Below, in pieces: positions 7,070 through 61,069 of a stretch of DNA of 64,000 nt; positions within the stretch are counted from its first letter, which is position 1, and each line of letters starts with the position of its first letter. A program made the translations under genes and the position numbers. Under the pieces are notes generated by a model. The model saw only the letters and a list, made by a program, of their open reading frames with translations, had not been told where the DNA came from and did not search any database. Where the stretch lies: NCBI GenBank assembly GCA_043228905.1, contig JBHGNT010000015.1, positions 13,578,001 to 13,642,000 of the forward strand. The letters run 5' to 3'. The stretch comes from Azolla caroliniana. Taxonomy: Eukaryota > Plantae > Polypodiophyta.

Positions 7070-9639
7070 GCGCGCCATGCGGAGACCATCCACTACTCGG
7101 CGTCGGCACGAATCTGGGTCGGGAGTGATGAAGGCCGGAAGACGAAAGACTCCGGGTTCTGGCCGGTGGTGCTAGAAGGCCTCGCTGGCGTGCGGTTGAA
7201 AAGGGAGGAAGCGGACCGGGCGGACAGACGGATCCGGGAGGTTACCGGGTGGAGAGATCCGGTCGAAGAAAAGACCGGCTTTGTGGAAGCCGTGTGCCAA
7301 AACTACAAAGTTCTGGTAGAAGACAAGCGTGCGGGAAAAGCAGGAGGGGCCGGACCCTTGTAACGGTATGAGACCCGATCCGGGCCGAAGCAGAATGACG
7401 TCGGTGTTGCCGGCACACCGAATAAAGGAAAGAAAGCCGGTTACCGGTTGAGCATCGAGATAGAAAGAATGACGGACCTGCGGAAGGTCCTGGAGGAACG
7501 AATCCTTGACAACAAGGTTGAGTTTCGCTGAGGGAAGTGCTTGGGATCGCCAAGAATGAATTCCATGACTCCAACGTGGACTTGGTGAAGCAAAAAAGGC
7601 TTTTGACAGAGCCGGAGCCAGAGAGGCCGGTGGAGGTGCGAACGACGCACCTAGAAGACATGGCCCTGGAAGATGAGTTGGCGGAAAGCCACTATTCAAA
7701 GCCGCACTGGGCAAGAGCCACTCCGAAGATCCCGGTTAGGATCGGGGACGTCCAGGAGCCGGTGATGGCATTAGTAGACCACGGTTGGGAGATCAACCGG
7801 ATGTCGATGGACTTGTACAAGAAGGGCAACTGGCTGATCAACAAGAAGCAAGGGTGGAAAATACGAGCGGTGACGTGCGCCACGGAGGAGCTACATGGGG
7901 CCTGCCCGAATGTGCGGGTGAAAATCGGTGATGTCGAGATCGACCAACACTTCTTTGTGCAGGAGACATCGTGGCATCTGGTGATACTCGGAGAACCGTA
8001 CATTACGACAACACGTATGGAGATGAAAGTGTTGGATAACGGTTCAGCGTATGCACGCGTGAAGAGCCAAGATGGACGACACTCCGTCCAATTCGTGACC
8101 GTGCGACCGAACCATGAGCGCAACCGTGAGACCCTCGGTGGCGAAAGCCAAGGGGATTTTTAGAGAGGTCCATCAAGGTGTGGGGCCATGATAGTCCGGA
8201 CACCCCGGAGGATCCCCACACCTGTACCATAGGTCGGAAGTTCTGGTTCTCCGATAGCGAAGGTTGTACGATAGCCGACATCGTTAGCTTAGGAACATCT
8301 CAAGATATGTGGAGTCCTCGCCCCCAATGAGGAAATTAGTGGCGCCGTGGAGGTGGTCTCTTTCGACGACCCTTAGGGAAATCTGGAAGGTGATCGAAGA
8401 AGGCCTCGGTGAAGATCGGATGATTCCGGTTAACTTGGTGGAAATGTTCGAGGTCATTACTGACTTTGGGGAAAGGGTCAGGTCAGATCGGACGGCTTGC
8501 ATGTATACACGGTACAAGACTGTGGACCGGAAGGTGAGGCTAGTCGCGGCACCCTTGCCGGAGGGCAGCAAGTTACAGATGAAAGGGGTCGCATCGGACC
8601 CAAGTCTACTGGATTCGGCCGGCATAGGACACTGGTTCACCAACATAACGTTACGAGAGCTCAAGGTTGGTGGGGTTGGCTTTGTACGGAAGACGGAGGA
8701 GGAACGGTTTTAGAGAATGCTCGGGAGGCACGGGAAGGCCTTCGCATTCTCGCCGGAAGAGATCCGGTGCGTGGACCCGATGGTCGTTGAGCTGATGGAT
8801 ATTTTTATGGTACCGCATGTGCCGTGGAATCTCAAACCGATTCAAGTACCTAGAGCTCACATCCTGAAGCTGATGGAGTTGTTGAAGCAGAAGGTGGAGA
8901 TGGGCATCCTCGAACAATCGAGTGCCCCATATTCTAATCGGTGGTTTACCGTGCCTAAGAAGAATGGCACGTTGCGCTTCATTCAGGACCTGCAGCCGGT
9001 CAATAAAGTGACCATTCGAAACGCAGGAGTCGGACCGACGATCAGTTTGGAGAGGCCTTCGCCAGGAGGTCGATCTATTCAGTCGGGGATCTATACTCAG
9101 GGTACTACCAGTTCCACCTAGCCGAGGAGAGTAGGGATGTCACGATGATGCGGACACCTCTCGGCTTAGTGCGGATGTGTACCCTGTTGTAGGGAGGGAC
9201 AAACTCAGTGGCGCACATGGTGAATGTGATGAACAAGGTGGTGAGGGACTACATCCCGGACATCACCATGCCATTTCTGGACGATATACTGATAAAGGGG
9301 TGCCCGGTGGAGGATAAGGATGAAATGGTTGGGCCAGACGGATGCCTGACATTCGTGGCGTACCACATTGACGACTGCGAGAAGGTACTGCAAAGACTAC
9401 AGGGTGCGCGATTCACCCTCTCTAGAGAGAAGTCGGCTTCTCGAGCAGTCAGAGATCCTTGTGGTCGGTCATTTGTGCAGGCCTTACGGCCGGAAACCGT
9501 CTCCGGCAAAGATAGAGGCCATCTCTGTGATGAAGGAAGAATGCAAGTCGGTTATGGAGGTGCCGAGGTTCCTGGGGGCATGCGCGTTCTATCACATTTG
9601 GATACCACACTACGCACACGTTGCGGAACTGCTCTACGG
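7070..9639 (+). pseudogene. Inverted internal segment of Gypsy A: gag C-terminus, protease, spacer, RT
   Basis: ARHAETIHYSASA (gag), LVDHGWEIN protease, YKTVDRKVR, SAPYSNRWFTVPKK, MPFLDD. Many stops and frameshifts. Confidence 0.9.
8154..8228 (+). promoter_or_regulatory. Putative -1 ribosomal frameshift signal (G GAT TTT + TAG + stem-loop) between protease and RT, family A
   Basis: Heptamer 8154-8160 is in phase with ORF 7537-8163. AGGTGTGGGG (8176-8185) pairs with CCCCACACCT (8214-8223). The -1 frame is open to ~8330. Confidence 0.65.
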
Positions 9640-10669
9640 TGTCATGGCGTGGCTTGCCTAGAAGCGTAGCATTGCGTAGACAAAAGATATCGTGAAAGTG
9701 ACGAAGGAATCACTGGGATTATGGACGGAAGAGACGAAAGAGTAGAGATAGAGTAAATAGATATCAACAAGATATGACACAATAGGATATTGAATGATAT
9801 TTGAAGGAATAAAAGAGATTTATAATTATTTGATGAAAGAGTTACAAAAGTGGTTGTAAGCGTCGTTGATCCTTCAAACTTGGTCTCACAAGATAATCGC
9901 TCTTCTCTTTCTTGATAGTAGGCCACAACAGTCTTCACTTCAATATTTTGATGAAGATAGGGCTCGAACCGCCTCCCTCTTGTTGAGAGTTGACCACCAC
10001 GATCGCCAAGCTAGAGCTCCACCTTTATGTTGAACTTCTTCCTTTCTTTCCCTATTTTATTGTATCTCTTATGTAATATATTTGATTGATATCTCATACC
10101 TCTCCCCTTTTGATCTTTTCTTTCACCCTTTAAATAGGTGCCCCCATGCATATGATGCATTGGAGGGTACAAGACATGCATGTGATGCATGATAAACATC
10201 TCGCTCATTTGAGCTTTTATGTATGAAACAATATATGCAATAACAATAAACATGAAAATATAATCTTAAAGAGAAAGGACCTAGCCTAATGGTAGGTGTG
10301 TTGACTTTGGTGTATGAGGTTGTGGGATTGAGTCTCAAAATACTATTGAATACAACATACAACTTTATTTTGATATCATGAAGCAAATCCTTTATGTAAT
10401 ATAAAGTATGCTTTATTTTATGTATATTACTAGTATAGAGTAAATGGTAAGATTTGAGAGTCATAGGGTGGGGTTATTGGTTCAAGTCCTCTCTTGTTCG
10501 TGTAATATAATATATTTATCTACATATATTATTTTTCTTTACATATATATAATATTATCATATGTGTTGTTAATATTATCTTTATATATAAAACATTATC
10601 AAATGTTATTTTAGTTATGTATTTATCTTATTGTAGACTTTTAATGTGAAGCTTTCATACTTCACGACA
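9640..10669 (-). repeat. Gypsy B 3' LTR
   Basis: TGTCATGG...TTCACGACA, adjacent to the PPT. Confidence 0.95.
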
Positions 10670-10709
10670 TCGACCCCCTCTAGACCTGCAGATCCTCCAG
10701 CATGTGCCA

Positions 10710-12221
10710 CTATCTTTCATGTTCATGTTGATCTATTGGAGGAGGTTCAAGCTGAAACCTTTTCTTAAATACTTTTATCCTCTTTCTAGCTACCTCGTTT
10801 AGGATTAGTGTCCCATCCAATTCACTAAGCTTATAAGTAAAGTTATCATATACTTTTCTTACTATATAAGGCCCAAACCATCTTTTAGTGAGCTTGCGGA
10901 TGGTCCTATGTTGATTATCTAAACTGCTATCATACACGAGCACCCAATCTCCTTCTTCTATTTTCTTAGGTCGAATTCTTTGAGTTTTATCAAAACAAAT
11001 TTTATTCTTTAGTCGATCCTCCTTCAATCGTTGGGCTGCTATTTCTATATCTTCAGGTCGACGCTCTAATTGTTGAATTCGCAAAGCAAGTAATTCTTCT
11101 CTGCTCACCTCTTCTTTCCATGGAATAGATATCCATGACATAATTGATTCTTCTATCGGCATGATGGGCTTTTGGCCAAGTATCAATTCAACTGGCATGT
11201 ATCCTGTTACCGAACTATGAGTTGTTCGATCCGCCCATAGTGCATAAGGTAGCATGCGTGACCAATCTCTTATTTTACCTTTACAGCTTTTCATGATCGC
11301 CTTAACTATTGGGCTATGTCCTCTTTCAATCTTTCCATTGGCTTCTGGATTATACGCAGTTGTAAGTGATAATTTGACCCCTATTTGGCTGAAGAATTCT
11401 CTAGCTTCATCAGGGTCGAGTTCTCCTCTATCTGCAATTATTTTACCAACACACCCGTAATGACATATTACATCTTCTAACTAAAATTTACATACAGCTC
11501 TAGTTGTTTTTTGTCGTAATGGTCTTCTTTCTACTTGGTTTGTAAGGTCTTCTCTTGCTAGTACTAAATATCACATTTGACCTTCCCCAAGTGGCATTGT
11601 CACTAGATCGACCATCCATTTATAATGCATTGATGATGAATATGTTGGTTTTAGCTCATCTCGATACCAGATAGTTGAATACCTCTGGCAAACCTCACAG
11701 GTTTCCACAAATTTCGTTACATCTTTATACATAGGTGGCCACCAATACTTTTCTTTCAACTTCATAAATGTCGCCCATATGCCTCTATGTCCTGCCCACA
11801 AACTATCATGGAATTCATTAATTAATTTTCTCTTAATGTCATCCTTACAAATGACTCGAAGAGGATTTTCGGTTGGCCTTTTTGGACACCTCCATAAATG
11901 CCCTTCATGTAAAAAAAACTTGAATGCTCGTCTTCGAAATTCATTTAATTGTTTCTTTGACCATGATGGGTTGGCTTCTTGAGTCTTTAGAAAATTTCCT
12001 ATTTCTAACCATTGACCTTCATACTCTATGTCTTTGAACATTATACTTACATTAAACTCATCATGAGGCGTAATAGATTCTTGATGAGCAAATTGATGGC
12101 TTGTAGTTGCCCAGTTCTTATCTTCAGTTTGCATCACCTTTTCATTTATGAACCTTGCCCTTGACAACATATTTGCAACTGGGTTGTCTTTTCCCTTTAT
12201 ATGCAGCAATTCTGGGTTCAT
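10710..12221 (-). pseudogene. Gypsy B integrase (HHCC, core, GPY/F)
   Basis: FHDSLWAGH...CEVCQ, WMVDL, LWADRTT, WFGPY. Stops and frameshifts at 11460-11571. Confidence 0.9.
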
Positions 12222-12262
12222 GGTTCACCGAAGCATTGCAATATCTGGTGTCGTGCAACTTG

Positions 12263-13708
12263 CTACCATTCCGATGAGTGGCAAACTTCCTTCATATTTT
12301 GTATTGCGTTAATTTTGATCGGTGACGGCTTCCTCCCATACCAGCCACACATATTACCAACTATTAGAACTTCGTTCTGCCCAAGGCTTGACTTTCTTCC
12401 TGGTAGTGTCAAATGTACCTGCTCAAGCTTATTTAAAATACTTTCACAATCATTAATGTGATCCATCACAGACTTTCTACAACCATTGCCAACCATAGTC
12501 TTGTCTTTCTCTCTTTCTAGGCATCCCTTAATAGGAATATCATCTAAAAATGGCATAGTTACCTTTGGGATATATTCATGTAGAACTTTGTTCATTGCAT
12601 TCATCATATGAGCAACTGAATTCGTCGCACCTTGAGGTAGAGTGCACATTCGAACCAACCCAATTGGTGTTTTCATTGTTGTGATATTGCGACTATCAAT
12701 TGCTAGTTGAAATTGGTTGTATCCTGAATATAGGTCTCCCATAGAGTAAATCGCTCTTCCAGCAAACGCTTCTGCAAATTCATCAACGATCGGTCTGATT
12801 CTCGCATTTCGGATTGTGACTTTGATGACTAGTTGTAGATCTTGAATGAATCTTAGAGAACCATCTTTCTTTGGAACTGTGAACCATCTATTGGAGTATG
12901 GTGCATTTGAAGGCTCTAAAATCTTCATCTTGACTTTATCCTTCAGCAGCTCCAACAATTGAGGTAATCGAGCCCTCGATACTGCAATAGGTTTAAAATT
13001 CCAAGGAATATGAGGGATAGTAAATATTACCATTGCCGTCACCACCTTTGGATCTACACAACCAATCTCCTCAGCTTTGAATGTGAACGCTTTCCTGGAT
13101 GCCTAAAGATCATTTCTTTGAAAGTTGCGATCTCTGATTGCAGAAGAAATTCACCCCCTCCGATTCTCAAGTTATTTATTGTCTCCGAAGTGAAGTGATG
13201 TCTGATCTTCTCTACTGGTCGAAGCATAGGCTCAGTTGTTGCTGCCTCCATCTTCTCTTCACTACCAATAGGTAATGGTACTGCAGCAGGTTTGACCTTT
13301 TTATCTATTGTTTTGTATTTTGTATTACATAAACTTTCTACTTCTTCATATTTACAATTATACCTATCAATCTCATAATACATATCAATTGAGTTTACAT
13401 GTATCTTTCTAACATTCTCATCATCTTCTTTCAAATACATTTCTAACTCTTCTAAAGTATTTGCAAAAGAAATTTCTTCCATAACACTTTCAATCTGCTC
13501 TTCCATTTCAAGTACTCCATTATCCTTCAATGCCTATTGAAACAGATTAACATTCTTTTTCAAGTTTCTCTTGCATTCATACATCCTAGTCACACATATA
13601 GCACCACTTTCAGAAACATGAAATGACTTATTCATATGTTGTAATGCCCTATATGAGGGTCTTTTAATAATGGGACTATTGCAACCCTCACTTGCAACAG
13701 TCCTAGTA
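12263..13708 (-). pseudogene. Gypsy B pre-RT spacer and reverse transcriptase
   Basis: YKTIDKKVKP, RFIQDLQ, DLYSGY, LPQGATNS, FLDD. Confidence 0.9.
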
Positions 13709-13715
13709 AAAAACC
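13673..13715 (-). promoter_or_regulatory. Putative -1 frameshift signal, family B (G GTT TTT + 12-bp hairpin)
   Basis: Minus strand CAG GTT TTT TAC TA, then GGACTGTTGCAA-GTGAGGG-TTGCAATAGTCC (12 bp, one G-U pair). Confidence 0.6.
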
Positions 13716-15877
13716 TGATTATCAAAATCATCACAGTCTTTTGGTATTCAATAATCACAAATCTCTTGCTTGTTCCTCTCATGATTTGGGCGAACTGTCA
13801 TAAATTGTACAGTTCGTCGTCCATCTTGGGTACGGATTTTCGTATAGGCAGAACCATTGTCGAGGACTTTGGTCTCCATCTGTACCGCTGTAATGTATGG
13901 TTGCCCCAAGATTATTGGATAGGTAGATCCTTCCTGCACAAAGAAATGTTAATCTACCTCTATATCGCCAATAGTAACCTTTACATTTGGGCATGCACCA
14001 AATAAATCTTCCGTGATTGATGTGGCGGCTTTTACTCACCAACCATGTTGAGTATCAATTGGCCATCTACCTTTCCTGTAAAAATCAGCACTCATTATAT
14101 TTATTTCAGAACCATGATCAATAAGTGCCATCACCGAGTCTGGAACATTTCCAATCTTCACATGATGCTCAGTAGTTGCTCTTGCCCAACATTTGCGAGA
14201 GTAGTGGCTTCTTGTCTCTGTTGAACTTATCATTGAGGTTGATGCATGTTGAGAGTCAACAATGATATTGTTCGACTCATTGCTTACCACTTCATATGCC
14301 ACCTTCGGATTTGTTTCTTTAACCTGCTCATTTACTTGCTTCTTTCTTCGCACAATATCAATTATTTCATCATGAAATTCCTTTTTTGCAATACCTAACA
14401 CTTCTCTTAGTGTAAATTCTACTCGATTGTCTAGTATTCTTGTTTCTAAAACTTTCTTTAAATCTGTATCTTTTTCAATATCAGACATTAATTTGAATGA
14501 AGGACCAGATTTACCTTTTTCGACCTTTGCGTCCATCTCTTTTCTTTTGTTGTCTCTTGTCTCATGCTTTTTGGTTGAGCCAATCTCATCATCTGGCCTT
14601 TTCCTTTTTTCTTTCACTATCACCTCATGCTCTTGGTGTTCTGCCATCTGAGCATAGACCGTCATAGCATCTACTGGAACATCCCATCCAATGTTTTTCC
14701 TTACAGAATCTCCTGCAACACGAAGGTCTTCCATCTTCATTTTTTGCTTTTGTGTGGTACTTACAACCTTCTCCCAGAATGATGATCGGGATGGCATGTC
14801 ATCGAGGCGCATTCCTGCCGTTGCCGAGTAGTACATTGCAGAAGCCTTCTTTGCTTCAGCTTCTTCAAATTTAACCTTAACACCTCCATCACCAAAGTTC
14901 TTTGTAAGTGGACTTCTAGTTTCAGTTAAATAAATGTTACCAATTTTCCAATACACCAAGTCTCGATTTTCCATGTCTTTATATTCCGCACAATCACGTA
15001 ATCGATGTTCGAGACTATCACACCACATGCATCGAGGTCGAAATGGTTCCCTTGACCTCAAAGTCTGACCATTCTCAAGCTTTGCCACTTTAATTGTTAG
15101 ATCTTTCATACTTTGAACTAAATCATCAAGCAAACACTCACTCTTAGTTTCGAACATTTCTCGTGGTTGATGAACCATCTCATGTGATGGTTCTCGACCA
15201 AGTCTTTGAACTTCGATGTTTTGCTCAAGCCGATTTGTGATTCCCCCATATGGTATTTGTAGCATTGCACCATTCCTTTGCATTCTTTTCATAAATTTAT
15301 TACAAGAATTTGTTACCTCATTCCAATCTGTAGTTATACCATCCTCAGTATTTGGTACTTCAAGCATGAATTCCAATTCTTTTCTATATCTCTTGTCAAC
15401 TGCCAGCAAAACTAAAGCAACCTTTTGCCAAGACAAAGAATTTCTTTCTTCTGGCTTTAAGTGTCCATACATCCTATCAAACTTCTTTTTTGTGTCAGCC
15501 ACAGATAACCCTTTATCTTCTTTTAAGATCCATTCATGAAATGAACGCATAGTAACTCGAGAGAAATCCTCACGAGCATATTCAGACACAAGTCCTTCTT
15601 TGAATGCATACCAATCCAAACTATGCAATGTTTGTATTTCATGAATTCTATCTCTTAATTCCATTTCCACTAATTTATAAAAGTTTGCTATCATATTGAC
15701 ATCATTCATACCAGACATTTCCATTTCATCATAATATATATTCACATACTTCGAAATATTTGTACCATAAAACATACCAATCTTCTCTTGGACTTCTCGT
15801 AAGGCATGAAATAATCGATCTTGATTAAACTTTTCAATAAACAACCTTACCAGACCCATTGTAATCATACTTGCCAT
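13703..15877 (-). pseudogene. Gypsy B gag-protease ORF
   Basis: 613-aa ORF 14036-15877 with CCHC (CMWCDSLEHRLRDC) and protease LIDHGSEIN. Continues in broken ORFs to ~13703. Confidence 0.9.
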
Positions 15878-15921
15878 GTTGATGTTGATCTTTACTTTAG
15901 ATGTCTCTTCTACTTCCCCGT

Positions 15922-15939
15922 TTCACGTCGGGTTCACCA
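15922..15939 (-). promoter_or_regulatory. Primer-binding site, tRNA-Trp (perfect 18 nt)
   Basis: Plus strand TTCACGTCGGGTTCACCA, 5 nt from the LTR end. Confidence 0.85.
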
Positions 15940-15944
15940 AATTG

Positions 15945-16965
15945 TGTCGTGGCGTGGCTTGCCTAGAAACGTAGCGTTGGGTAGACAAAAGATATCGTGA
16001 AAGTGAGGAAGGAATCACTGGGATTATGGACGAAAGAGACAAAAGAGTAGAGATAGAGTACATAGAGATCAACAAAATATGACAAGATAGGATATTGAAT
16101 GATATTTGAAGGAATAAAAGAGATTTATAATTATTTGATGAAAGAGTTACAAAAGTGGTTGTAAGCGTCAATCGCTCTTCTCTTTCTTGATAGTAGACCA
16201 CCACAATCTTCACTTCAATATTTTGATGAAGATAAGGCTTGAACCGCCTCCCTCTTGTTGAGAGTTGACCACCACGATCGCCAAGCTAGAACTCCACCTT
16301 TATGTTGAACTTCTTCCTTTCTTTCCCTATTTTATGGTATCTCTTATGTAATATATTTGATTGATATCTCATACCTCTCCCTTTTTTATCTTCTCTTTCA
16401 CCCTTTAAATAGGTGCCCCCATGCATATGATGCATTGGAGGGTACAAGACATACATGTGATGCATGATCGCCATTTGGCGTTCATGCATTGCATGTGATG
16501 CATGATAAACATCTCGCTCATTTGAGCTTTTATGTATGAAAAAATATATGCAATAACAATAAACATGAAAATATAATCTTAAAGAGAAAGAAAGTATCTA
16601 GCCTAATGGTAGTTCTGTTGACTTTGGTGTATGACGTTGTGGGTTCGAGTATCAAAATACTATTGAATACAACATACAACTTTATTTTTATATCATAAGC
16701 AAATCCTTTATGTAATATAAAGTATGCTTTATTTTATGTATATTACTAGTATAGAGTAAATGGTAAGATTTAAGAGTCATAGGGTTGGGTTATTGGTTCA
16801 AGTCCTCTCTTGTTCGTGTAATATATATATTTATCTATATATATCTAATATTATCATATGTGTTGTTAATATTATCTTTATATATAAGACATTTTCAAAT
16901 GTTATTCTAGTTACGTATTTATCTTATTGTAGACTTTTAATGTGAAGCTTTCGTACTTCACGACA
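15945..16965 (-). repeat. Gypsy B 5' LTR
   Basis: TGTCGTG...CACGACA, adjacent to the PBS. Confidence 0.95.
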
Positions 16966-18042
16966 GCGCCACCGCTTCTTCCATCAGTCTCTTCATTCCT
17001 CCCCGTCTGATATTCAGCTCTAGGGCTCTCCGAGTCTCGCTAACATGCACCCTCCCATTCCATAGGTACACCACATTAGCCCTTATTGCTTCTGCAAAGT
17101 CCACGCAGTCCTTCCGGACGTGACCGACCGCGTCACACCACAAGCACCGCTGCCCACCCGGAGGCCTTCGGTCGCGAGGCTACTCATTGTTGTCCCTCCT
17201 CGCTTGTGCAATATGGAGGTCTCGTACCATGTGCATCAGTTCTTCCAGAGCCGCTCTACGTGACGGGCCCTTGACCACGCCGGACGAGCCTGTCTCAAGC
17301 CAATCCCGGGTTCCCTCCTTGCGCGCCAGCGGGGGTCCCTCGAGGTTTCTTGCCGCAACCGCTCCTGCCCCCGACGAGCCCTTGTCAACCCACGCACGCC
17401 GTTTGTCGAAACGGCCGCAGACCCCTTTTACCACGGCCCAGTCGGCCGTCAGCCCAATGTGCGTCCTTAGCAGGAGACCCACTTGCTCCCAATCCCGCAC
17501 GTCCACATCTTTGACGAATAAAAGGACACGGCTCATGTCCAGTACGGTCCTATCTAGTGCCGAAAGATGTGTGAAGTGTTCCTCGAACTCCTGGAGGAGC
17601 GCCGACGCATTCCTCCCCTTTCTTGGGGTCTCTACCCAATCTATAAAGTTCCGCTTCGATAACCGAAGCGTGTCATCAAGCCTGTACCGCTCAAGGAGCC
17701 TCGCTTCGAATTCCCCCCAGGTCCGGCATCGAGCCTGCACCTCGAGCACCTCTGCGTGGATGCCCGGTCTCGCTACCCAGGAAAACCCACGTAGATGCCT
17801 CTCCCCCAGGATGTCCCTCATCACCATTTTGGCCCGATAGGGCACCAAATAACTCGTGGTGTCCTTCCCATCGAACCGGCCTATTGTGCCGACAATTGCT
17901 TCAATGGCCCTGTCGAGGGCACCCGTGCACTCGCGAGCACTTACTATCCAATCGATTCCTGTTGCCATGGCTTCGACGACCTCTAATCCCCTCATTTTCG
18001 ATTCCTCTGCCGCCTTGTTTCACGTTGGGTTCACCAATTTAA
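16966..18042 (-). pseudogene. Gypsy A gag N-terminal part and Trp PBS (18019-18036)
   Basis: ORF 17180-17995 plus the CCHC region (WCDAVGHVRKDC, 16958-17143). Confidence 0.9.
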
Positions 18043-42322: not shown

Positions 42323-45300
42323 TCACTTCGGCATGGGATGTCTCTCCAATCCGATCCTCTTCCGGCATGCTTCCAGCTTGTCGGGTGTGAGCACCTTGGT
42401 CAGCATATCCGACCCGTTCTCGTTCGTGTGGACCTTCGTCAGCACGAACTCCTTGTCCTCTATCCTTTCCCGGATCCAGTGGTATCTACGCTGGATGTGC
42501 TTCGTCCGGGAGTGATAGGCCGCGTTCTTCGCAAGGTGGATGGCACTCTGACTGTCGCAGTAGAGTCGGTACTCCTCCTGCCGGATACCGAGCTCTCTAA
42601 TGAAGTCCTTCATCCATATTATTTCCTTGCCGGCTTCAACAGCCGCCATGTACTCCGCCTCCGTGGTTGACAACGCAACCGTCTTCTGCAGCCTCGACTG
42701 CCACGAAACAGCTCCCCCTGCATACGTCATCACATACCCTGATGTGGACCGGCTGGTATCTGCATCAGCCGACATATCCGAATCGGTAAAGCCGTCGAGT
42801 TCGGGCTTTCGAGAGCCAAATCGGAGGCACACGTTTGCCGTGCCCTTCAGGTATCGGAGTATCCACTTGACCGCGTTCCAGTGCTCTTTGCCGGGATTTC
42901 TCATGTACCGGCTCACCACTCCGACTGCGTATCCAATGTCCGGTCTTGTACACACCATTGCGTACATCAAGCTTCCAACGGCAGAGGCATATGGCACTTT
43001 CATCATGTCCTCCTTCTCAGCCTTTGTCTTGGGGCTTTGCTTGCTGGACAGCTTGCAGTTTGCCGGGAGGGTCGATCCGACCGGTCTTGCTTCCGACATG
43101 TTGAACCGTTTAAGCACCTTTGTCACGTACTTCTCTTGTGACAGCCACAACTGCTTCTTGCTCCGGTCCCGGATGATGTGCATCCCTAGTATTTGTCTCG
43201 CCGGACCCAAGTCCTTCATTGAGAAGGTTCGGTGAAGAGCCTTCTTCAGCATCCGTATCTTGACCTGGTCCCGTCCGACGATCAACATGTCGTCCACGTA
43301 CAGGAGGAGTATTAGAAAGTCTCCTCCTTCGAACTTCTTCACAAACACGCAGTGGTCGGACTGCGTTTTGAGGTACCCTTCGTCGATCATGAAGGAGTCG
43401 AACTTCCGGTACCATTGCCGGGGAGCCTGCTTCAGTCCGTAAAGGCTCTTCTTCAACCGGCATACCAGGTGCTCCTTCCCTTTCTTCTCGAATCCTTCCG
43501 GTTGCTGCATGTAGATCTCTTCTTCGAGGTCACCGTGAAGGAATGCCGTCTTCACGTCCATCTGTTCTACCTCGAGGTCCATGCTTGCCGCTATGCTCAG
43601 CACCGTCCGGATGGAGGTCATCTTCACTACCGGGGCAAATATCTCGTCGAAGTCGACGCCCTTCTTCTGCTGAAACCCCTTCACCACGATCCTGGCTTTG
43701 TATCTCGGGGGGTTTCCGGCATCTCCCGGTTTCAGCTTGAACACCCACTTGTTTCGTAGTGCCCGCTTTCCTTTCGGCAACTCCACAAGTTCATATGTGT
43801 GGTTCTCATGCAGGGAATCCATCTCGTCCTGCATGGCACTCAACCACCTGCGGCTCTGGGTGTCATGCTTTGCTTCTTCAAAGCTCTCCGGCTCCCCCTC
43901 GTCGGTTAGCAGCACGTGCTCTGGTTCCGGAAATCTCCGGGGGGCCCTTCTCTCTCTTAGAGGATATCTCCGTTCCGGAGCTTCGGTAACCGGTTCTTCC
44001 GATTCTTCTTCATCCGAATCCATTTCGGGATCGGGGCCGGTTCCGGTATCATTTTCATCTTCTTCGGCCGGTTCTGTTTCTTCACCGTCTTCGGCCGGAT
44101 CCTCGAGTGCTAACCGGTCCCTTGCCGGTCGGGACTGCTCCTCGTAGAGTTTATCCTCACCGGTCGACTTGGAGCTCTTCATCTTCTTCTCCGACTCCCA
44201 GTTGGCGAGTGTCTTGTCCTCCATGAAGATGATATCTCGACTCCTGAATATCTTCTTGTCGACCGGGTCCCATACTCGGTAGCCGAACTCGTCGTCGCCG
44301 TAACCGAGGAATATGCATGGCCGGGTCTTTGGATCTAACTTTCCTCTCCGGTCCTTTGCCACATGCACGTATGCGAGACACCCGAACACCTTCAGATGCC
44401 GGTAGGACACTTCCTTACCGGTCCACACTTTCTGCGGCGTGTCTCCGTCCAAAGGTACTGAGGGTGATCTATTTATCACATACGTCGCCGTCGACATTGC
44501 CTCAGCCCAAAATCCCTTGGGTAATTTCGCATGCGCCAGCATACTCCGGACCCTCTCCATTATGGTCCGGTTCATTCTCTCGGCCAGCCCGTTCAGTTCC
44601 GGCGTCTTCGGCACAGTAAACTCGAGCCGGATTCCCTTCGAGCGACAGTACTCCTGGAACTGCCCCCGGTATTCTCCTCCGTTATCCGCTCGTATCGCTT
44701 TCAGCTTCTTGCCGGATTCCCTTTCCACCCTCGCGTGGAGTTCTTTGAAGACGGACAGTACTTGGTCCTTTGTCTTCAACGGTGCCGTCCACAGCTTCCG
44801 GCTGTGATCATCAATGAATGTTACGAAGTACTGGGCTCCGCCATGTGACTTCGTTTCTACCTGACACACATCAGTATGCACCAACTCCAATGGTGCGCTA
44901 CGTCTCGTCGGTGGCCTTGAGTGGAAGGAGGTTCGGTTTTGCTTACCGGCCAGACAGTCGGTGCACTTCTCCAGGTGCACATGCTTCACTGGAATAAGGT
45001 TGTCTTCTGCAAGCCTCTTCATCCCCTTCTCACTCATGTGGCACAGTCTCTTGTGCCACAGCTCACCGGCAGTGTCGGCTGCCACATTCAGCTCTTCCGG
45101 ACATAACCGGGCATTCATCAGGTACAGTGTGTTGTCTTTCCGGGCCCGAGCCACTATCAGGCTCCCCTTGCTGAACTTCATTACGCCGTTCCGGATGCTA
45201 CCTGTGTAGCCTTCATCGTCTAGCCTCTCGGCCGAAATCAGGTTCAATCGAACCTCCGGAACGTGTCTGACATCCTTCAGCAGCATTTTGCATCCGGTCG

Positions 45301-46396
45301 AGGTTGTCACCCACACGTCTCCTATGCCGGCAATCCGGCACGTACCTTCATTTCCCATCCGAACACAGCCATGCTCACCGGCTGTGTAGGATGAGAAGTA
45401 TCTTCTCTCCGGGGTCAGGTGGAACGATGCTCCGGAATCGACCACCCAGGTCGTCTCATCGCCGGCAACGTTTAGTTCACCTTCTTCGGTGATGAGCATG
45501 ATTTCTTCCTCACTTGCCGCGAGTGCCGTCGTTCCTTTCCGGTCCTGCCCTCGCCGATCAGGACCTCTCCGGTCCGTGGCTCCCCGGTATGCACCGTTTC
45601 TCTCCGGTGACTTCTTCGAATCGGTGTCGTCGGCTCCGTTGTCCTTTCGGTAATGCCGACAATTCTTCCGGAAGTGCCCCGGCTTCCCACAGTGGAAGCA
45701 TGTGGGCCTTCCTCTTGACTGCGACCGGGTCCCCGACTTCTCCCGTCTTTGCGGACTCCGGTTCCGTTGTCTTCCCCGATCCGATTCGGTAAGCAGCGCC
45801 TTCGAGTCGGAGACCGGTTCTTTATCTCTCCGACGCGCTTCTTCGTTCAAAATACTTGTCTTTACCGTTTGTAGGGACAAGTTGTCTTCCGTGCAGGAGG
45901 TGCTGAGAGTCACCACCAAGTTCTCCCAGCTTTCCGGTAATGTACACATCAGAATGATGGCTTGCATTGCATCCTCCAACGGGAACTTAATCGCCGCAAG
46001 CTGGTTCACGAATCCCATGAACGTGCTCACGTGTTCCACCATATTCTCGCCGTCCCGGTACTTGAGGTTCACTATTTTCCTCATCAGGGAGGTCCGGTTC
46101 AACGCATTCTTCCTCTCGTAGAGGCCCGACAGCTTCTTCCACATCTCATATGCGTTGGTGTCGTTCGCCACATGTTGTAGGACGCTTACATCGACATATT
46201 GCCGAATCGTCGCTACGGCTTTCCGGTTCAGGAGCTTCCACTCCGACTCTATTACTCCCTTGGGTATCTCGGCATTGTCGATCGGTTCGTACAGGTCTCG
46301 GACGATGAGAAGGTCTTCCATCTTTATCTTCCAGTCGGCGTAGTTCTGTGAGTTCAACACCATCATGCCCGGAGGCCCACTAACGCCGCCTTCCAT
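42323..46396 (-). CDS. Copia Gag-Pol polyprotein (1357 aa from the ATG at 46396)
   Basis: CFHCGKPGHFRKNC, VVDSGAS, HKRLCH..CTDC, D-D-E integrase, YVDD, RNase H (TDSD, EAE, CDS). No stops. Confidence 0.97.
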   Translation of the reverse strand: MEGGVSGPPGMMVLNSQNYADWKIKMEDLLIVRDLYEPIDNAEIPKGVIESEWKLLNRKAVATIRQYVDVSVLQHVANDTNAYEMWKKLSGLYERKNALNRTSLMRKIVNLKYRDGENMVEHVSTFMGFVNQLAAIKFPLEDAMQAIILMCTLPESWENLVVTLSTSCTEDNLSLQTVKTSILNEEARRRDKEPVSDSKALLTESDRGRQRNRSPQRREKSGTRSQSRGRPTCFHCGKPGHFRKNCRHYRKDNGADDTDSKKSPERNGAYRGATDRRGPDRRGQDRKGTTALAASEEEIMLITEEGELNVAGDETTWVVDSGASFHLTPERRYFSSYTAGEHGCVRMGNEGTCRIAGIGDVWVTTSTGCKMLLKDVRHVPEVRLNLISAERLDDEGYTGSIRNGVMKFSKGSLIVARARKDNTLYLMNARLCPEELNVAADTAGELWHKRLCHMSEKGMKRLAEDNLIPVKHVHLEKCTDCLAGKQNRTSFHSRPPTRRSAPLELVHTDVCQVETKSHGGAQYFVTFIDDHSRKLWTAPLKTKDQVLSVFKELHARVERESGKKLKAIRADNGGEYRGQFQEYCRSKGIRLEFTVPKTPELNGLAERMNRTIMERVRSMLAHAKLPKGFWAEAMSTATYVINRSPSVPLDGDTPQKVWTGKEVSYRHLKVFGCLAYVHVAKDRRGKLDPKTRPCIFLGYGDDEFGYRVWDPVDKKIFRSRDIIFMEDKTLANWESEKKMKSSKSTGEDKLYEEQSRPARDRLALEDPAEDGEETEPAEEDENDTGTGPDPEMDSDEEESEEPVTEAPERRYPLRERRAPRRFPEPEHVLLTDEGEPESFEEAKHDTQSRRWLSAMQDEMDSLHENHTYELVELPKGKRALRNKWVFKLKPGDAGNPPRYKARIVVKGFQQKKGVDFDEIFAPVVKMTSIRTVLSIAASMDLEVEQMDVKTAFLHGDLEEEIYMQQPEGFEKKGKEHLVCRLKKSLYGLKQAPRQWYRKFDSFMIDEGYLKTQSDHCVFVKKFEGGDFLILLLYVDDMLIVGRDQVKIRMLKKALHRTFSMKDLGPARQILGMHIIRDRSKKQLWLSQEKYVTKVLKRFNMSEARPVGSTLPANCKLSSKQSPKTKAEKEDMMKVPYASAVGSLMYAMVCTRPDIGYAVGVVSRYMRNPGKEHWNAVKWILRYLKGTANVCLRFGSRKPELDGFTDSDMSADADTSRSTSGYVMTYAGGAVSWQSRLQKTVALSTTEAEYMAAVEAGKEIIWMKDFIRELGIRQEEYRLYCDSQSAIHLAKNAAYHSRTKHIQRRYHWIRERIEDKEFVLTKVHTNENGSDMLTKVLTPDKLEACRKRIGLERHPMPK

Positions 46397-48011
46397 TTTC
46401 TGTGTTACCGTCGCTCTAATACCAGTTTGTTGAAAAAAACAGTGCTCGGCCACAACCGAGGAATAGGATCAACTCACAGAAAACAGGAAATACAAAAAAT
46501 GCACGAGGACAATAGAGAGAAAAGGTACACTGGATATTTTACGTGGAAAACCCTAAATGGGAAAAACCACGGGAGTCCTCAAACTCCAACTATCACTATG
46601 AACAGGGATGTACACTGGTGAAGCTGCAAGGCAACAACCTTGAGCTCACTGTCTTCGCCACAGGCGGCGGTAATACACAGAGGCAACGACCTCTTCGTCT
46701 CTCTCTCTCTCTCTCTCTCTGGGCTGCTCTCACTTCGCATAAAAATGAGCAACAACCTAAAACTGATTGCCCTAAGTCATATTTATACACATATGACTTT
46801 CGGGCTATTTACAAATATAGCCTCAAGGGCTCTTGGCAAAACATATTCACAAATATGTCCCCGCATCCGGATCTCTCTCCGGGTACATTCGTCATCCGGC
46901 TCCGTAACCGGGGTCTTCAGCATCCGGCTCCGTAACCGGGGTCTTCAGCATCCGGCTCCGTAACCGGGTACTCTTCATCCTACGGTTCCGTAACAGCCTC
47001 CGGGCTTGCCGTCATTCATCTCCGGACATCCCATCCGGAGGGACCGAAATCCCAACAGAACCGGACCATAATGGAGAGGGTCCGGAGTATGTTGGCGCAT
47101 GCAAAACTACCCAAGAAGTTTTGGGTTGAGGCACTGTCAACAACGACGTATGTGATAAACAGATCACCCTCAGTACCCTTGGACGGAGACACGCCACAGA
47201 GAGTCTGAACCGGTAAGGAAGTGTCCTACCGGCATCTGAAGGTATTCGAGAGTCTCGCGTACGTGCATGTTGGAAAGGACTGGAGAGGAAAGTTGGATCC
47301 GAAGACCTGGCCATGCATATTCCTTGGTTACGGTGACGATGAGTTCGGCTACCGAGTGTAGGACCCGGTTGACAAGAAGGTATCCCGGAGTCAAGATATT
47401 ATCTTCATGGAGGACAAAACGCTCGCCGACTGGGAGTAGGAGAAGAAGATAATGAACTCCGAGTCGACCGGTAAGGATTGATTCTACGATGAGCGGACCC
47501 AACCGGCAAGAGACTCGTTAGCACTCGATGAACCGGCCGGTGACGGTAAGGAGACAAGACAGGCCGAAGAAGAAGGAATAGGTGAAATGGAACTGGCCAA
47601 GACCGATGAGGGAGAGCCGGAAAGCTTTGAAGAAGCGAAGGAAGACACCCACAGCCGCAAATGGTTAAGTGCCATGCAGGATGAGATGGATTCCAAGCAT
47701 GAGAACCATACGTACGAATTGGTGGAGTTGCCGAAAGGAAAGCGGGCACTCCGAAACAAGTGGGTGTACAAGTTGAAACCGGGAGATGCCGACAACCCCC
47801 CAAGATACAAAGTCAGGATCGTGGTGAAGGGGTTCCAGCAGAAGAAGGGCGTTGCCTCTGTGTTCATCTATTATATATTGTAGCATAGTGATAGTTTGCA
47901 GTTTGTGGACTGCTGTGGTTTTTCCCGTATTTGGGTTTTCCACGTAAACATCCTATGTACTCTTCTCTTTACTGTGTCGTGCGTACATTACCCGTTTTTC
48001 TGTGTTTGATC

Positions 48012-59436: not shown

Positions 59437-60600
59437 CTACTTTACAATGTCGTGGCCGAGCCTGAGCTCGAGGTCTACTAATTTACTAGGCGGATTGGCA
59501 CCCGGACACTCGAATTTGTAGTTCATGTCCATCCCTAATCCGTGGTCTAATTTGAAGGGCTTCTTGGTGAGTCTCGGGCTATGGCTTCTTAAGATTTGGA
59601 GATCAATGGAGTCATGGGTAGTCTTAGTAGTAGCAGTAGTAGAAGTAGTAGAAGTAATAGTAGTAGTAGTAGGAGGAGTGATGATCAAAGGGTGATTGAA
59701 TGATGTTCTGCTTGGCCGTGGGTGATTGTGGTTAGAAATCTTGGCAGGGAGATCGCGGATATGCTCGGTCGAATCCGAGGCCCTCGATGGCATTAGGTAT
59801 TTGGTGGGCAATGGTTTAGCGGAGAAGAAGAAATCCGGGGAGAAAATGGTTGTTCCCTTGGACGGGTGTGGAGTCGGAGGGGTGGTCGTGGTAGTGGTCA
59901 TTACGGACAAAGCATCGGGTGGCGGTGAGATGATAGAAGAATTGGGCGGGGGTGGCGAGGAGGATTGGCGGAGGCGAGCTCGGTCACGGCGGTGCACATT
60001 CATGTGTCCGCCGAGGGCTTGGGCAGATCGGAACTCGCGCCGGCAGAAGGTACAATGGTAGGAGCGCGGCGGCCACACGCCCGTGGCTAGGCCGGCCGCC
60101 GCATCCTCATCATTATCATCATTGGCCAGCATCCGCGCCCGCCCCATGTCCGCGCCCACGCTCCCCCATGTCTGGGACACGCCCAAATTTTGAATGGCAT
60201 TCGACAAAGTGTTAGAATTGTGGGAATGATGTCCCGGAACCGCCGCCGCGCCTTGGTGATTCTGTTGTCGCTTGTTGTGATCATAACTGTAAACTTGAGG
60301 GTTTCTATTCATAGAGAAGAGATTGGTGATCGAGTTGTTGCGGATCGGTGGCATCGTCGTAATTGTGGTTAACGAGGAAGCGGTCGGTTGTTGTTGTTGC
60401 TTTCGGCCACGCCCGGCCATTGTCATCGCCAGTAGTTGGTGGTGCTGCCCACATAAGGGCACATTCACACCAGCAGCCCCATTGTCATCATCATCATCAT
60501 CATCGCCACCATCATCATTATGAAAAGGGCTACTAGTTGTGGTGGTAGTGGTCATGCCATGAACTGCCATGTAGTTATAATAAGGCTTGTTGGCCGCCAT
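59437..60600 (-). CDS. SUPERMAN/ZFP10-11-like single C2H2 zinc-finger transcriptional repressor (QALGGH, C-terminal EAR motif), intronless, 387 aa
   Basis: [37 protein letters not shown] and terminal DLELRLG. Low-complexity D/Q/T/P tracts. Confidence 0.95.
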
Positions 60601-61069
60601 ACGAAGTGGTCAGGGGTGTGGTGCGGATGGCTCGGCACCGGATCGGCCTCTCAATTGCGCTTCATCTATCTATTTCTGCTATCATTTTAGGGGGCAATGA
60701 CACATTCCCGAGCCGAGCTTCAAGTTATTTCGCTTCCTAGTCTCCGGTGGCCCTTACTCCTCCACATAGCTCGTCGTCCTTCGCACTCCTATAAATTTAA
60801 ATCCGGGCCGAGAACCTAAGCACCTTAGCTAGCTTCTGCTTCAATAATAAACCGGTCAATCGATCGATCTCATCGAAATGGCTCACCCTCCCCCCTCCCC
60901 CCCCCCACACACACAAACACAAACACAAAACACATGCACAAGCACAAATTACAAGCACCTTAGCTAGCTTCTTCGAAATATATGAACTCGATGGGTCAAG
61001 AGAATTTAGGGTACACCCGAAAGCGTTGCTTCTAGCTTGTCGATCGATAGATCCACTGATCCATCAATA

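Follow-up and report, generated by a model that had tools for sequence, protein, structure and literature searches.

Introduction

Among plant long terminal repeat (LTR) retrotransposons, the Ogre and Retand elements of the Tat lineage are broken between protease (PR) and reverse transcriptase (RT), by an intron or by a stop codon (PMC6317226), and among retroviruses a -1 shift where the protease gene ends opens RT in mouse mammary tumour virus (MMTV) and human T-lymphotropic virus (HTLV) (PMC5009743). For Phygy elements, a non-chromovirus Ty3/gypsy clade, the organization of open reading frames (ORFs) is entered as 'ND' (not determined) in the standard classification (Neumann et al., 2019, REXdb table; PMC6317226, MOESM5), and no group in that table is given GAG-PROT overlapping RT-RNase H (RH)-integrase (INT) in another frame as its prevailing layout (PMC6317226). 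Here we analyse a 64,000-nucleotide stretch of the Azolla caroliniana genome (GCA_043228905.1, contig JBHGNT010000015.1; G000:C15:13578001-13642000 in our notation, G000 being the source genome), hereafter the window, in which a fragment of a Ty3/gypsy element, family A, lies beside an element of a related family, B. We propose that in this tRNA-Trp-primed lineage Gag and protease share one frame and RT-RH-INT occupies an overlapping one, which ribosomes would reach by slipping back one base at G_GAU_UUU under the influence of a predicted pseudoknot; from sequence comparison we put the probability of this reading at roughly 0.87.

The feature itself is real and lineage-wide. We observe the two-frame layout, conservation of the heptamer, the stop and the spacer, pairing and covariation in both stems of the downstream structure, and fewer synonymous differences over the signal. 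Our literature search, beyond whose reach most subscription papers lay, turned up no account of frameshifting between PR and RT in elements of the Phygy type, and the signal is not described in the accessible text of Vendrell-Mir 2020 (PMC7466625), the Retand paper (PMC11963269) or a 2025 review (PMC12786077).

Gag-protease and RT in overlapping frames

A first-pass annotation of the window had observed that the Gag-protease frame of the family A fragment ends on GGATTTT in the X_XXY_YYZ phase with TAG directly after it, and had proposed that the lineage makes Gag-PR together with a frameshifted Gag-PR-RT-RH-INT. The heptamer and the stop are as it described (Table 1); slippery-type heptamers terminate two of the 396 stop-to-stop frames of at least 60 amino acids in the window, this site included. 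The fragment is a dead copy, with multiple stops and frame breaks in gag and RT, and both of its ends are cut by family B LTRs inserted at NCGN sites. Its -1 frame is open at the junction and can be aligned, as had been claimed, to the frame that follows the protease in family B, but it never reaches RT, because this copy lacks 17 nt near 8289 and 2 nt near 8368 that others possess; the -1 layout is therefore demonstrated by other copies rather than by this one. Trp priming of family A was likewise established elsewhere: the primer site is not in the window fragment and is seen in seven of eight longer genomic stretches (and in 6/6 for family B), and all four of the genomic genes matching it that were checked are tRNA-Trp.

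The protease is identified through homologues, the window peptide itself having no Pfam match and no relevant match in the Protein Data Bank. The catalytic motif of aspartic proteases is usually D-T/S-G. Here it reads D-H-G-S in 30 of 34 homologues (P0001-P0034) and D-H-G-W in the window copy (7774-7785, forward strand), and some Riccia relatives keep D-T-G-S.

We scored the frame of RT relative to protease in 58 other family A copies, taken from the 60 best-scoring loci among thousands of first-look candidates and thus a non-random sample: 43 are -1, six are +1, five are in frame 0 and four are unscorable, so that a single frame for PR and RT is not the rule. G_GAU_UUU is retained in 52 of the 58, with a stop immediately 3' in 49 of those 52. 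A third family in the same genome is -1 in 11 of 12 copies. Among 80 related metagenome loci, 40 are -1, seven +1/-2 and three frame 0, while 27 lack a scorable RT and three run off the contig end; 35 of the 40 -1 loci are open from before the stop through to the start of RT. The idea that the frame break is decay of the window copy, with heptamer and stem present by chance, could draw on the many stops and indels of that copy and on the part of the first-pass stem that is private to it (see below). Most copies show the same break, heptamer and stop, as do families whose synonymous sites are saturated, and single-copy decay, to which we give next to no credence, is rejected on the share of -1 cases among scorable family A copies (43/54) and scorable metagenome loci (40/50).

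The proposed pair of products is supported by the long genomic copies, where one gag-protease frame overlaps a -1 frame for RT-RH-INT. Gag and protease lie in one frame in 14 long stretches, and some copies keep two overlapping frames without interruption, of 797 + 1172 codons (-1) and 739 + 1181 codons (+1/-2), the second frame coding for RT, RNase H and integrase (both frames of L095 and L103 were scanned against Pfam). Of 150 protease matches in G000, none falls within an open frame longer than 894 amino acids. At the protein level, DF is C-terminal in 19 of 34 Gag-PR homologues, and the protease motif is absent from 80 of 81 RT homologues, Riccia gene models excluded. TAG, TGA and TAA are each used as the Gag-protease stop across families; one -1 family has G_GAU_UUC without an immediate stop, the stop standing nine codons further on (L152:2836-2842). 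No relative emerged when viral contigs were scanned with the Physcomitrium protein.

A predicted pseudoknot downstream of the heptamer

The first-pass annotation had placed the stimulator in a 10-bp stem with an inner TCCGG/CCGGA hairpin. In the window copy the hairpin is present, 8176-8185 is the exact complement of 8214-8223, and this stem is the minimum-energy fold (z -2.3), but it is not the structure of the family. Across 27 close family A copies (L002 and L017, with indels, were left out) it is paired in 217 of 270 cells, with pair 8177-8222 in 9/27 and pair 8179-8220 in 5/27, and only a 6-bp core holds (153 of 162 cells). The helix that we term stem 1 (Table 1), which overlaps the inner hairpin, is paired in 210 of 216 cells, the hairpin itself in 116 of 135. 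Six other natural copies fold the stem 1 helix; the window copy folds as first described because two stem 1 pairs are broken there. The 6-bp core joins the stem 1 loop to downstream sequence, forming stem 2, and the predicted structure is therefore an H-type pseudoknot 6 nt past the heptamer. We reject the original stem-loop as stimulator in favour of this predicted pseudoknot, whose stem 1 helix and 6-bp core are what is conserved.

Comparison among families, counting over related sequences, extends this result. For 18 non-redundant families plus the window copy, 78.9% of stem 1 cells are paired as against 74.7 +/- 1.2% when shuffled; two-sided changes occur at seven of 12 pairs, the covariation score is reached by none of 500 shuffles, and controls with a slid partner are 28-40% paired. 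In stem 2 of the 18 families, the longest Watson-Crick run with the family's own partner averages 5.44 bp, whereas arms matched between families give 4.59 bp (35 of 20000 permutations) and shuffled sequence gives 3.81 bp. The length of loop 3 varies among families. Synonymous differences in 12 families amount to 149/465 (0.32) over the signal, compared with 1248/2142 (0.58) at the protease end and 3967/6753 (0.59) in RT. Because heptamer, stop and spacer are conserved across families near synonymous saturation, with a covarying structure downstream, the -1 mechanism is supported. In two metagenome loci (L126, L168) the 5' arm of stem 2 is present again directly after stem 1, and this extra copy could pair with the 3' arm of stem 2 into a rival hairpin, a possible switch.

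If this mechanism operates, most ribosomes would end directly past the heptamer and release Gag-PR. A minority would pause at the pseudoknot, perhaps also at the adjacent stop codon, and slip one base on tRNA-Asp and tRNA-Phe to yield Gag-PR-RT-RH-INT with the junction ...D-F-L-x-R. The rate of slippage would fix the Gag:RT ratio, and a break placed after the protease implies one protease on every Gag.

Exceptions and alternatives

Several observations weigh against this proposal. Eleven of the 54 scorable family A copies and 10 of the 50 scorable metagenome loci are not -1, two of the latter being of the -2 type, and in copy L017 a 2-nt loss at the site fuses protease and RT in frame; the other family A exceptions, oddly spaced, look like private indels from decay. 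Stem 1 has eight clean pairs in the window's subfamily as compared with 11-12 in several others, the pseudoknot of infectious bronchitis virus (IBV) requires 11 stem 1 pairs (PMC5009743), and stem 2 is short, 3-4 bp, in four of 18 families. Since the sequences share ancestry, the shuffle counts cannot be read as probabilities, and some of the conservation of the signal can be put down to amino-acid constraint on the RT frame. Protease and RT are joined in one predicted protein in the distant homologue P0142 and in 23 of 39 Riccia gene models (protein level only), and five Physcomitrium gene models diverge, with an exon change, directly after ...KDFG, which fits a frame break or a real splice donor.

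Such a donor would belong to an Ogre-like intron whose removal takes out the junction and links RT to Gag-PR or to a portion of gag, with the U-run and AG as acceptor; Ogre splices at the same position (PMC6317226), and the window reads TTTTTAG. Yet L117 and L126 have no AG within 10 nt past the heptamer, in the other -1 families its position varies, and the stop alternates between TAG, TGA and TAA. The RT frame overlaps the protease frame and is open through the junction, whereas Ogre ORFs lie about 274 bp apart on average (PMC6317226), and the linker is coding sequence under selection, with nonsynonymous divergence (dN) below synonymous divergence (dS). As far as DNA signals go, neither a conserved acceptor AG in the -1 families nor a non-coding intron of the Ogre type between the ORFs was found. 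A read run that probably consists of DNA (X1) contained no splice joint over the junction, which weighs neither way on splicing. An intron would also leave the fixed heptamer, spacer and pseudoknot unexplained, and we consider it very unlikely.

Equally little weight, or slightly less, goes to separate translation of RT-RH-INT by re-initiation, internal entry or a shorter RNA, the structure serving that purpose or packaging. The linker of 120-130 residues could hold a packaging signal, and in both family B and the related family L139 (see below) an RT-frame ATG lies a short way upstream of the site. The position of this ATG differs between the two, however, and it arises easily from the Asp/Asn-Asp codons of an acidic tail; moreover, initiation has no use for a heptamer kept in phase immediately ahead of the stop. 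A -1 shift remains our explanation for the junction in family A and the other -1 families.

A sister clade with a different frame offset

The first-pass annotation had likened the -1 frame of family A to the post-protease frame of family B. Family B is not a -1 element: the heptamer is present in 29 of 30 copies, and 27 of the 29 that could be scored place RT in the +1/-2 frame. In a partly overlapping set the offset is +1/-2 in 14 of 20, and four of the six exceptions carry indels 190-380 nt downstream of the site. In most copies of family B the -1 frame stops immediately after the site. The layout is shared by a second family, L139, where the -1 frame runs for seven codons before a stop. In place of G_GAU_UUU the site reads AG_GUU_UUU, the spacer is 5 nt rather than the 6 nt of family A, and the predicted pseudoknot has a stem 1 span of 31 nt, matching that of the -1 families. 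Family B, L139 and protein P0036 (protein only) form one clade (98/100) nested among -1 families in an unrooted tree with several forks open. Three Riccia Gag-PR models (P0030, P0031, P0034) end ...RRRRVFPDSLL, in which VF could be a GUU_UUU site (protein only).

Between B and L139, pol differs by dN 0.085 and dS 1.05 over 418 codons (dN/dS about 0.08). Some family B copies have LTR pairs that are 99.9-100% alike over the aligned part, and family B copies hold uninterrupted RT-RH-INT frames of 1164-1181 codons. From the old divergence of pol under selection and the near-identical LTRs it follows that the offset is old, selected and recently mobile. A frame-broken, non-autonomous lineage mobilised by the enzymes of -1 families, of which many with the same primer site exist in G000, would be a poor match to these data: two families share the offset across that divergence, the long RT-RH-INT frames are kept in elements with near-identical LTRs, and all five B/L139 differences in stem 1 preserve pairing, a modest point alone. 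A dead passenger is rejected on the low dN relative to dS across two families with a shared offset, and passenger status in general seems highly improbable.

[quoted passage not shown] We lean towards the view that RT of family B is reached by a -2 shift at this site, with the same predicted pseudoknot as driver. On comparable odds, slightly better than even, a plant retrotransposon clade would have switched from -1 to -2 for RT by keeping the pseudoknot, changing G_GAU_UUU to AG_GUU_UUU and losing one spacer base.

A +1 shift leads to the identical frame and is inseparable from -2 in DNA. It would involve forward tRNA slippage on GUU_UUU_G/U, stimulated by the pseudoknot and by the stop that lies one codon past the site, and antizyme +1 shifting is stimulated by a 3' pseudoknot (a pseudoknot is mentioned in PMC5009743). 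The site is, on the other hand, the PRRSV -2 site letter by letter, and the shorter spacer favours -2 (PMC7618472, PMC3458567). A +1 shift would set tRNA-Phe on UUG in most copies where -2 retains UUU, and the clade is nested among -1 elements, with the tree unrooted and several forks open. We regard +1 as unlikely. Splicing in family B specifically, where a CTAG/G acceptor after the U-run is conserved in B and L139, strikes us as improbable, and separate initiation of RT in that family, with the ATG just described and its differing positions, as more improbable still. For family B, a -2 shift thus stays our preferred, if tentative, reading.

Other features of the window and genome

The coordinates of the features discussed here are collected in Table 1. 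Two further Trp-primed elements with a different LTR lie at 639 and 18036 (both reverse strand), the latter with a gag-like frame only (17917-16967) and possibly non-autonomous. The tRNA-Trp 3' motif has 63 matches in the genome, with tandem arrays at G000:C8:17.80-17.82 Mb (about 1.2 kb spacing) and C16:4.99-5.11 Mb; the four tRNA-Trp genes checked are dispersed matches. Trp is the primer of these abundant elements. Families A and B (L091-L103) have a G-rich tract just before the 3' LTR, without a CCA end. A copia element at 42323-46468 (reverse strand) has an uninterrupted frame of 1381 codons and near-identical LTRs, and a 390-codon frame at 59437-60609 (reverse strand), with a C2H2 zinc finger just below the Pfam cut-off, is probably a host gene.

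Table 1. Positions in the window of the family A and family B features.
Feature	Position	Strand	Remarks
Family A Ty3/gypsy fragment, internal (gag end, protease, linker, RT, RNase H start)	7073..9636	+	
Aspartic protease core, gag frame	7729..7998	+	52% identity to a stretch of P0095 passing Pfam Asp_protease_2
Open -1 frame, start of RT-leading linker in other copies	8130..8327	+	aligns with family B post-protease frame
Slippery heptamer G_GAU_UUU, last two Gag-protease codons (Asp-Phe)	8154..8160	+	X_XXY_YYZ phase with protease frame
6-nt spacer with Gag-protease stop TAG	8161..8166	+	stop at 8161-8163
Predicted pseudoknot stem 1, 5' arm	8167..8174	+	two pairs broken in window copy
Predicted pseudoknot stem 2, 5' arm	8180..8185	+	core of first-pass stem
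Predicted pseudoknot stem 1, 3' arm	8190..8197	+	
Predicted pseudoknot stem 2, 3' arm	8214..8219	+	
RT and RNase H start, broken	8504..9636	+	
Family B element, LTR to LTR	9639..16968	-	with stops and frame breaks
Family B predicted pseudoknot	13654..13703	-	stem 1 13703-13693/13683-13673; stem 2 about 13691-13685/13660-13654
Family B spacer and Gag-protease stop	13703..13708	-	5-nt spacer 13708-13704; stop 13705-13703
Family B shift site AG_GUU_UUU, Gag-protease end	13709..13716	-	RT frame +1/-2
Family B tRNA-Trp primer binding site	15922..15939	-	

Implications

The proposed mechanism would fill the 'ND' cell for Phygy-type ORF layout in the classification of plant LTR elements and would give these elements a classical -1 signal with a pseudoknot. 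Annotation pipelines will take such elements for defective ones or place spurious introns at their junction. Few natural -2 shifts exist, and the one studied in most depth requires proteins. If the reading of family B is true, it would supply a natural, RNA-structure-driven and essential -2 shift beside -1 relatives in one genome, an evolutionary test of the mRNA-tension model. Because near-identical predicted pseudoknots occur here behind spacers of 6 nt and of 5 nt, and with two distinct sites, the choice between -1 and -2 is testable on natural pairs.

Comparison with known systems

Families A and B are best called Phygy-like. They share with Phygy the tRNA-Trp primer site, a 4-bp NCGN target duplication (six of seven two-LTR family A elements have identical flanks and one has a single mismatch; NCGN also marks the sites of family B insertion in the window), the order GAG-PR-RT-RH-INT, a compact internal region and the lack of a chromodomain match (Pfam scan of L095 and L103, with the protease identified by homology). 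Phygy elements measure 7.7-10.0 kb in REXdb, from one species; family A measures 6.9-7.4 kb, family B about 7.9 kb (from LTR positions) and the family B copy in the window 7.3 kb. The closest named relatives are Physcomitrium and Riccia proteins, and in an RT tree built without an outgroup or the REXdb reference set the Physcomitrium protein groups with the Riccia proteins, beside the studied families and not inside them.

The break takes the form of an intron or a separate ORF in Ogre and, mostly, of one in-frame stop in Retand (PMC6317226), whereas the elements described here have overlapping frames, a slippery site and a predicted pseudoknot. Ogre and Retand also possess an extra RNase H and mostly Arg or Lys primers, in contrast to the Trp primer of families A and B; no Pfam match suggested an extra RNase H in the scan of L095 and L103, and no separate search was aimed at one. 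A protease/RT frame break considered for Dictyostelium Skipper proved unsupported, that element having two ORFs with the protease placed together with RT (PMC5006619).

[quoted passage not shown]

In alpharetroviruses the protease lies in the gag frame and the shift falls between gag-pro and pol. This analogy was not confirmed from text: the 2016 review by Atkins et al. places the avian retrovirus protease in pol (PMC5009743). According to the same review, the plant cases from a 2003 survey were only +1 (PMC5009743).

The signal has the parts of a classical -1 signal: an in-phase heptamer (with G_GA for XXX, as in the umbravirus), a predicted structure 6 nt downstream, within the 5-9 nt of such signals, and an overlapping -1 frame with the downstream gene. 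G_GAU_UUU with a nearby stop is functional in pea enation mosaic virus, an umbravirus (PMC5009743). Umbravirus and dianthovirus stimulators rely on long-range pairing (PMC5009743), whereas the pseudoknot predicted here is local, within about 55 nt. It recalls the IBV type in its stem 1, which has 11-12 pairs in several families (PMC5009743).

Family B resembles arterivirus nsp2 in its RG_GUU_UUU site, in a downstream gene in the -2 frame and in a mostly immediate -1 stop. The PRRSV site lacks an RNA structure and depends on nsp1-beta together with poly(C)-binding proteins, which act on a C-rich motif 10 nt away (PMC7618472, PMC6675879). Family B, unlike PRRSV, has a predicted stem of 11-12 bp 5 nt downstream, and the shift would be its route to RT. 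Family B may act like the arterivirus -2 shift, yet outside the protein-driven class.

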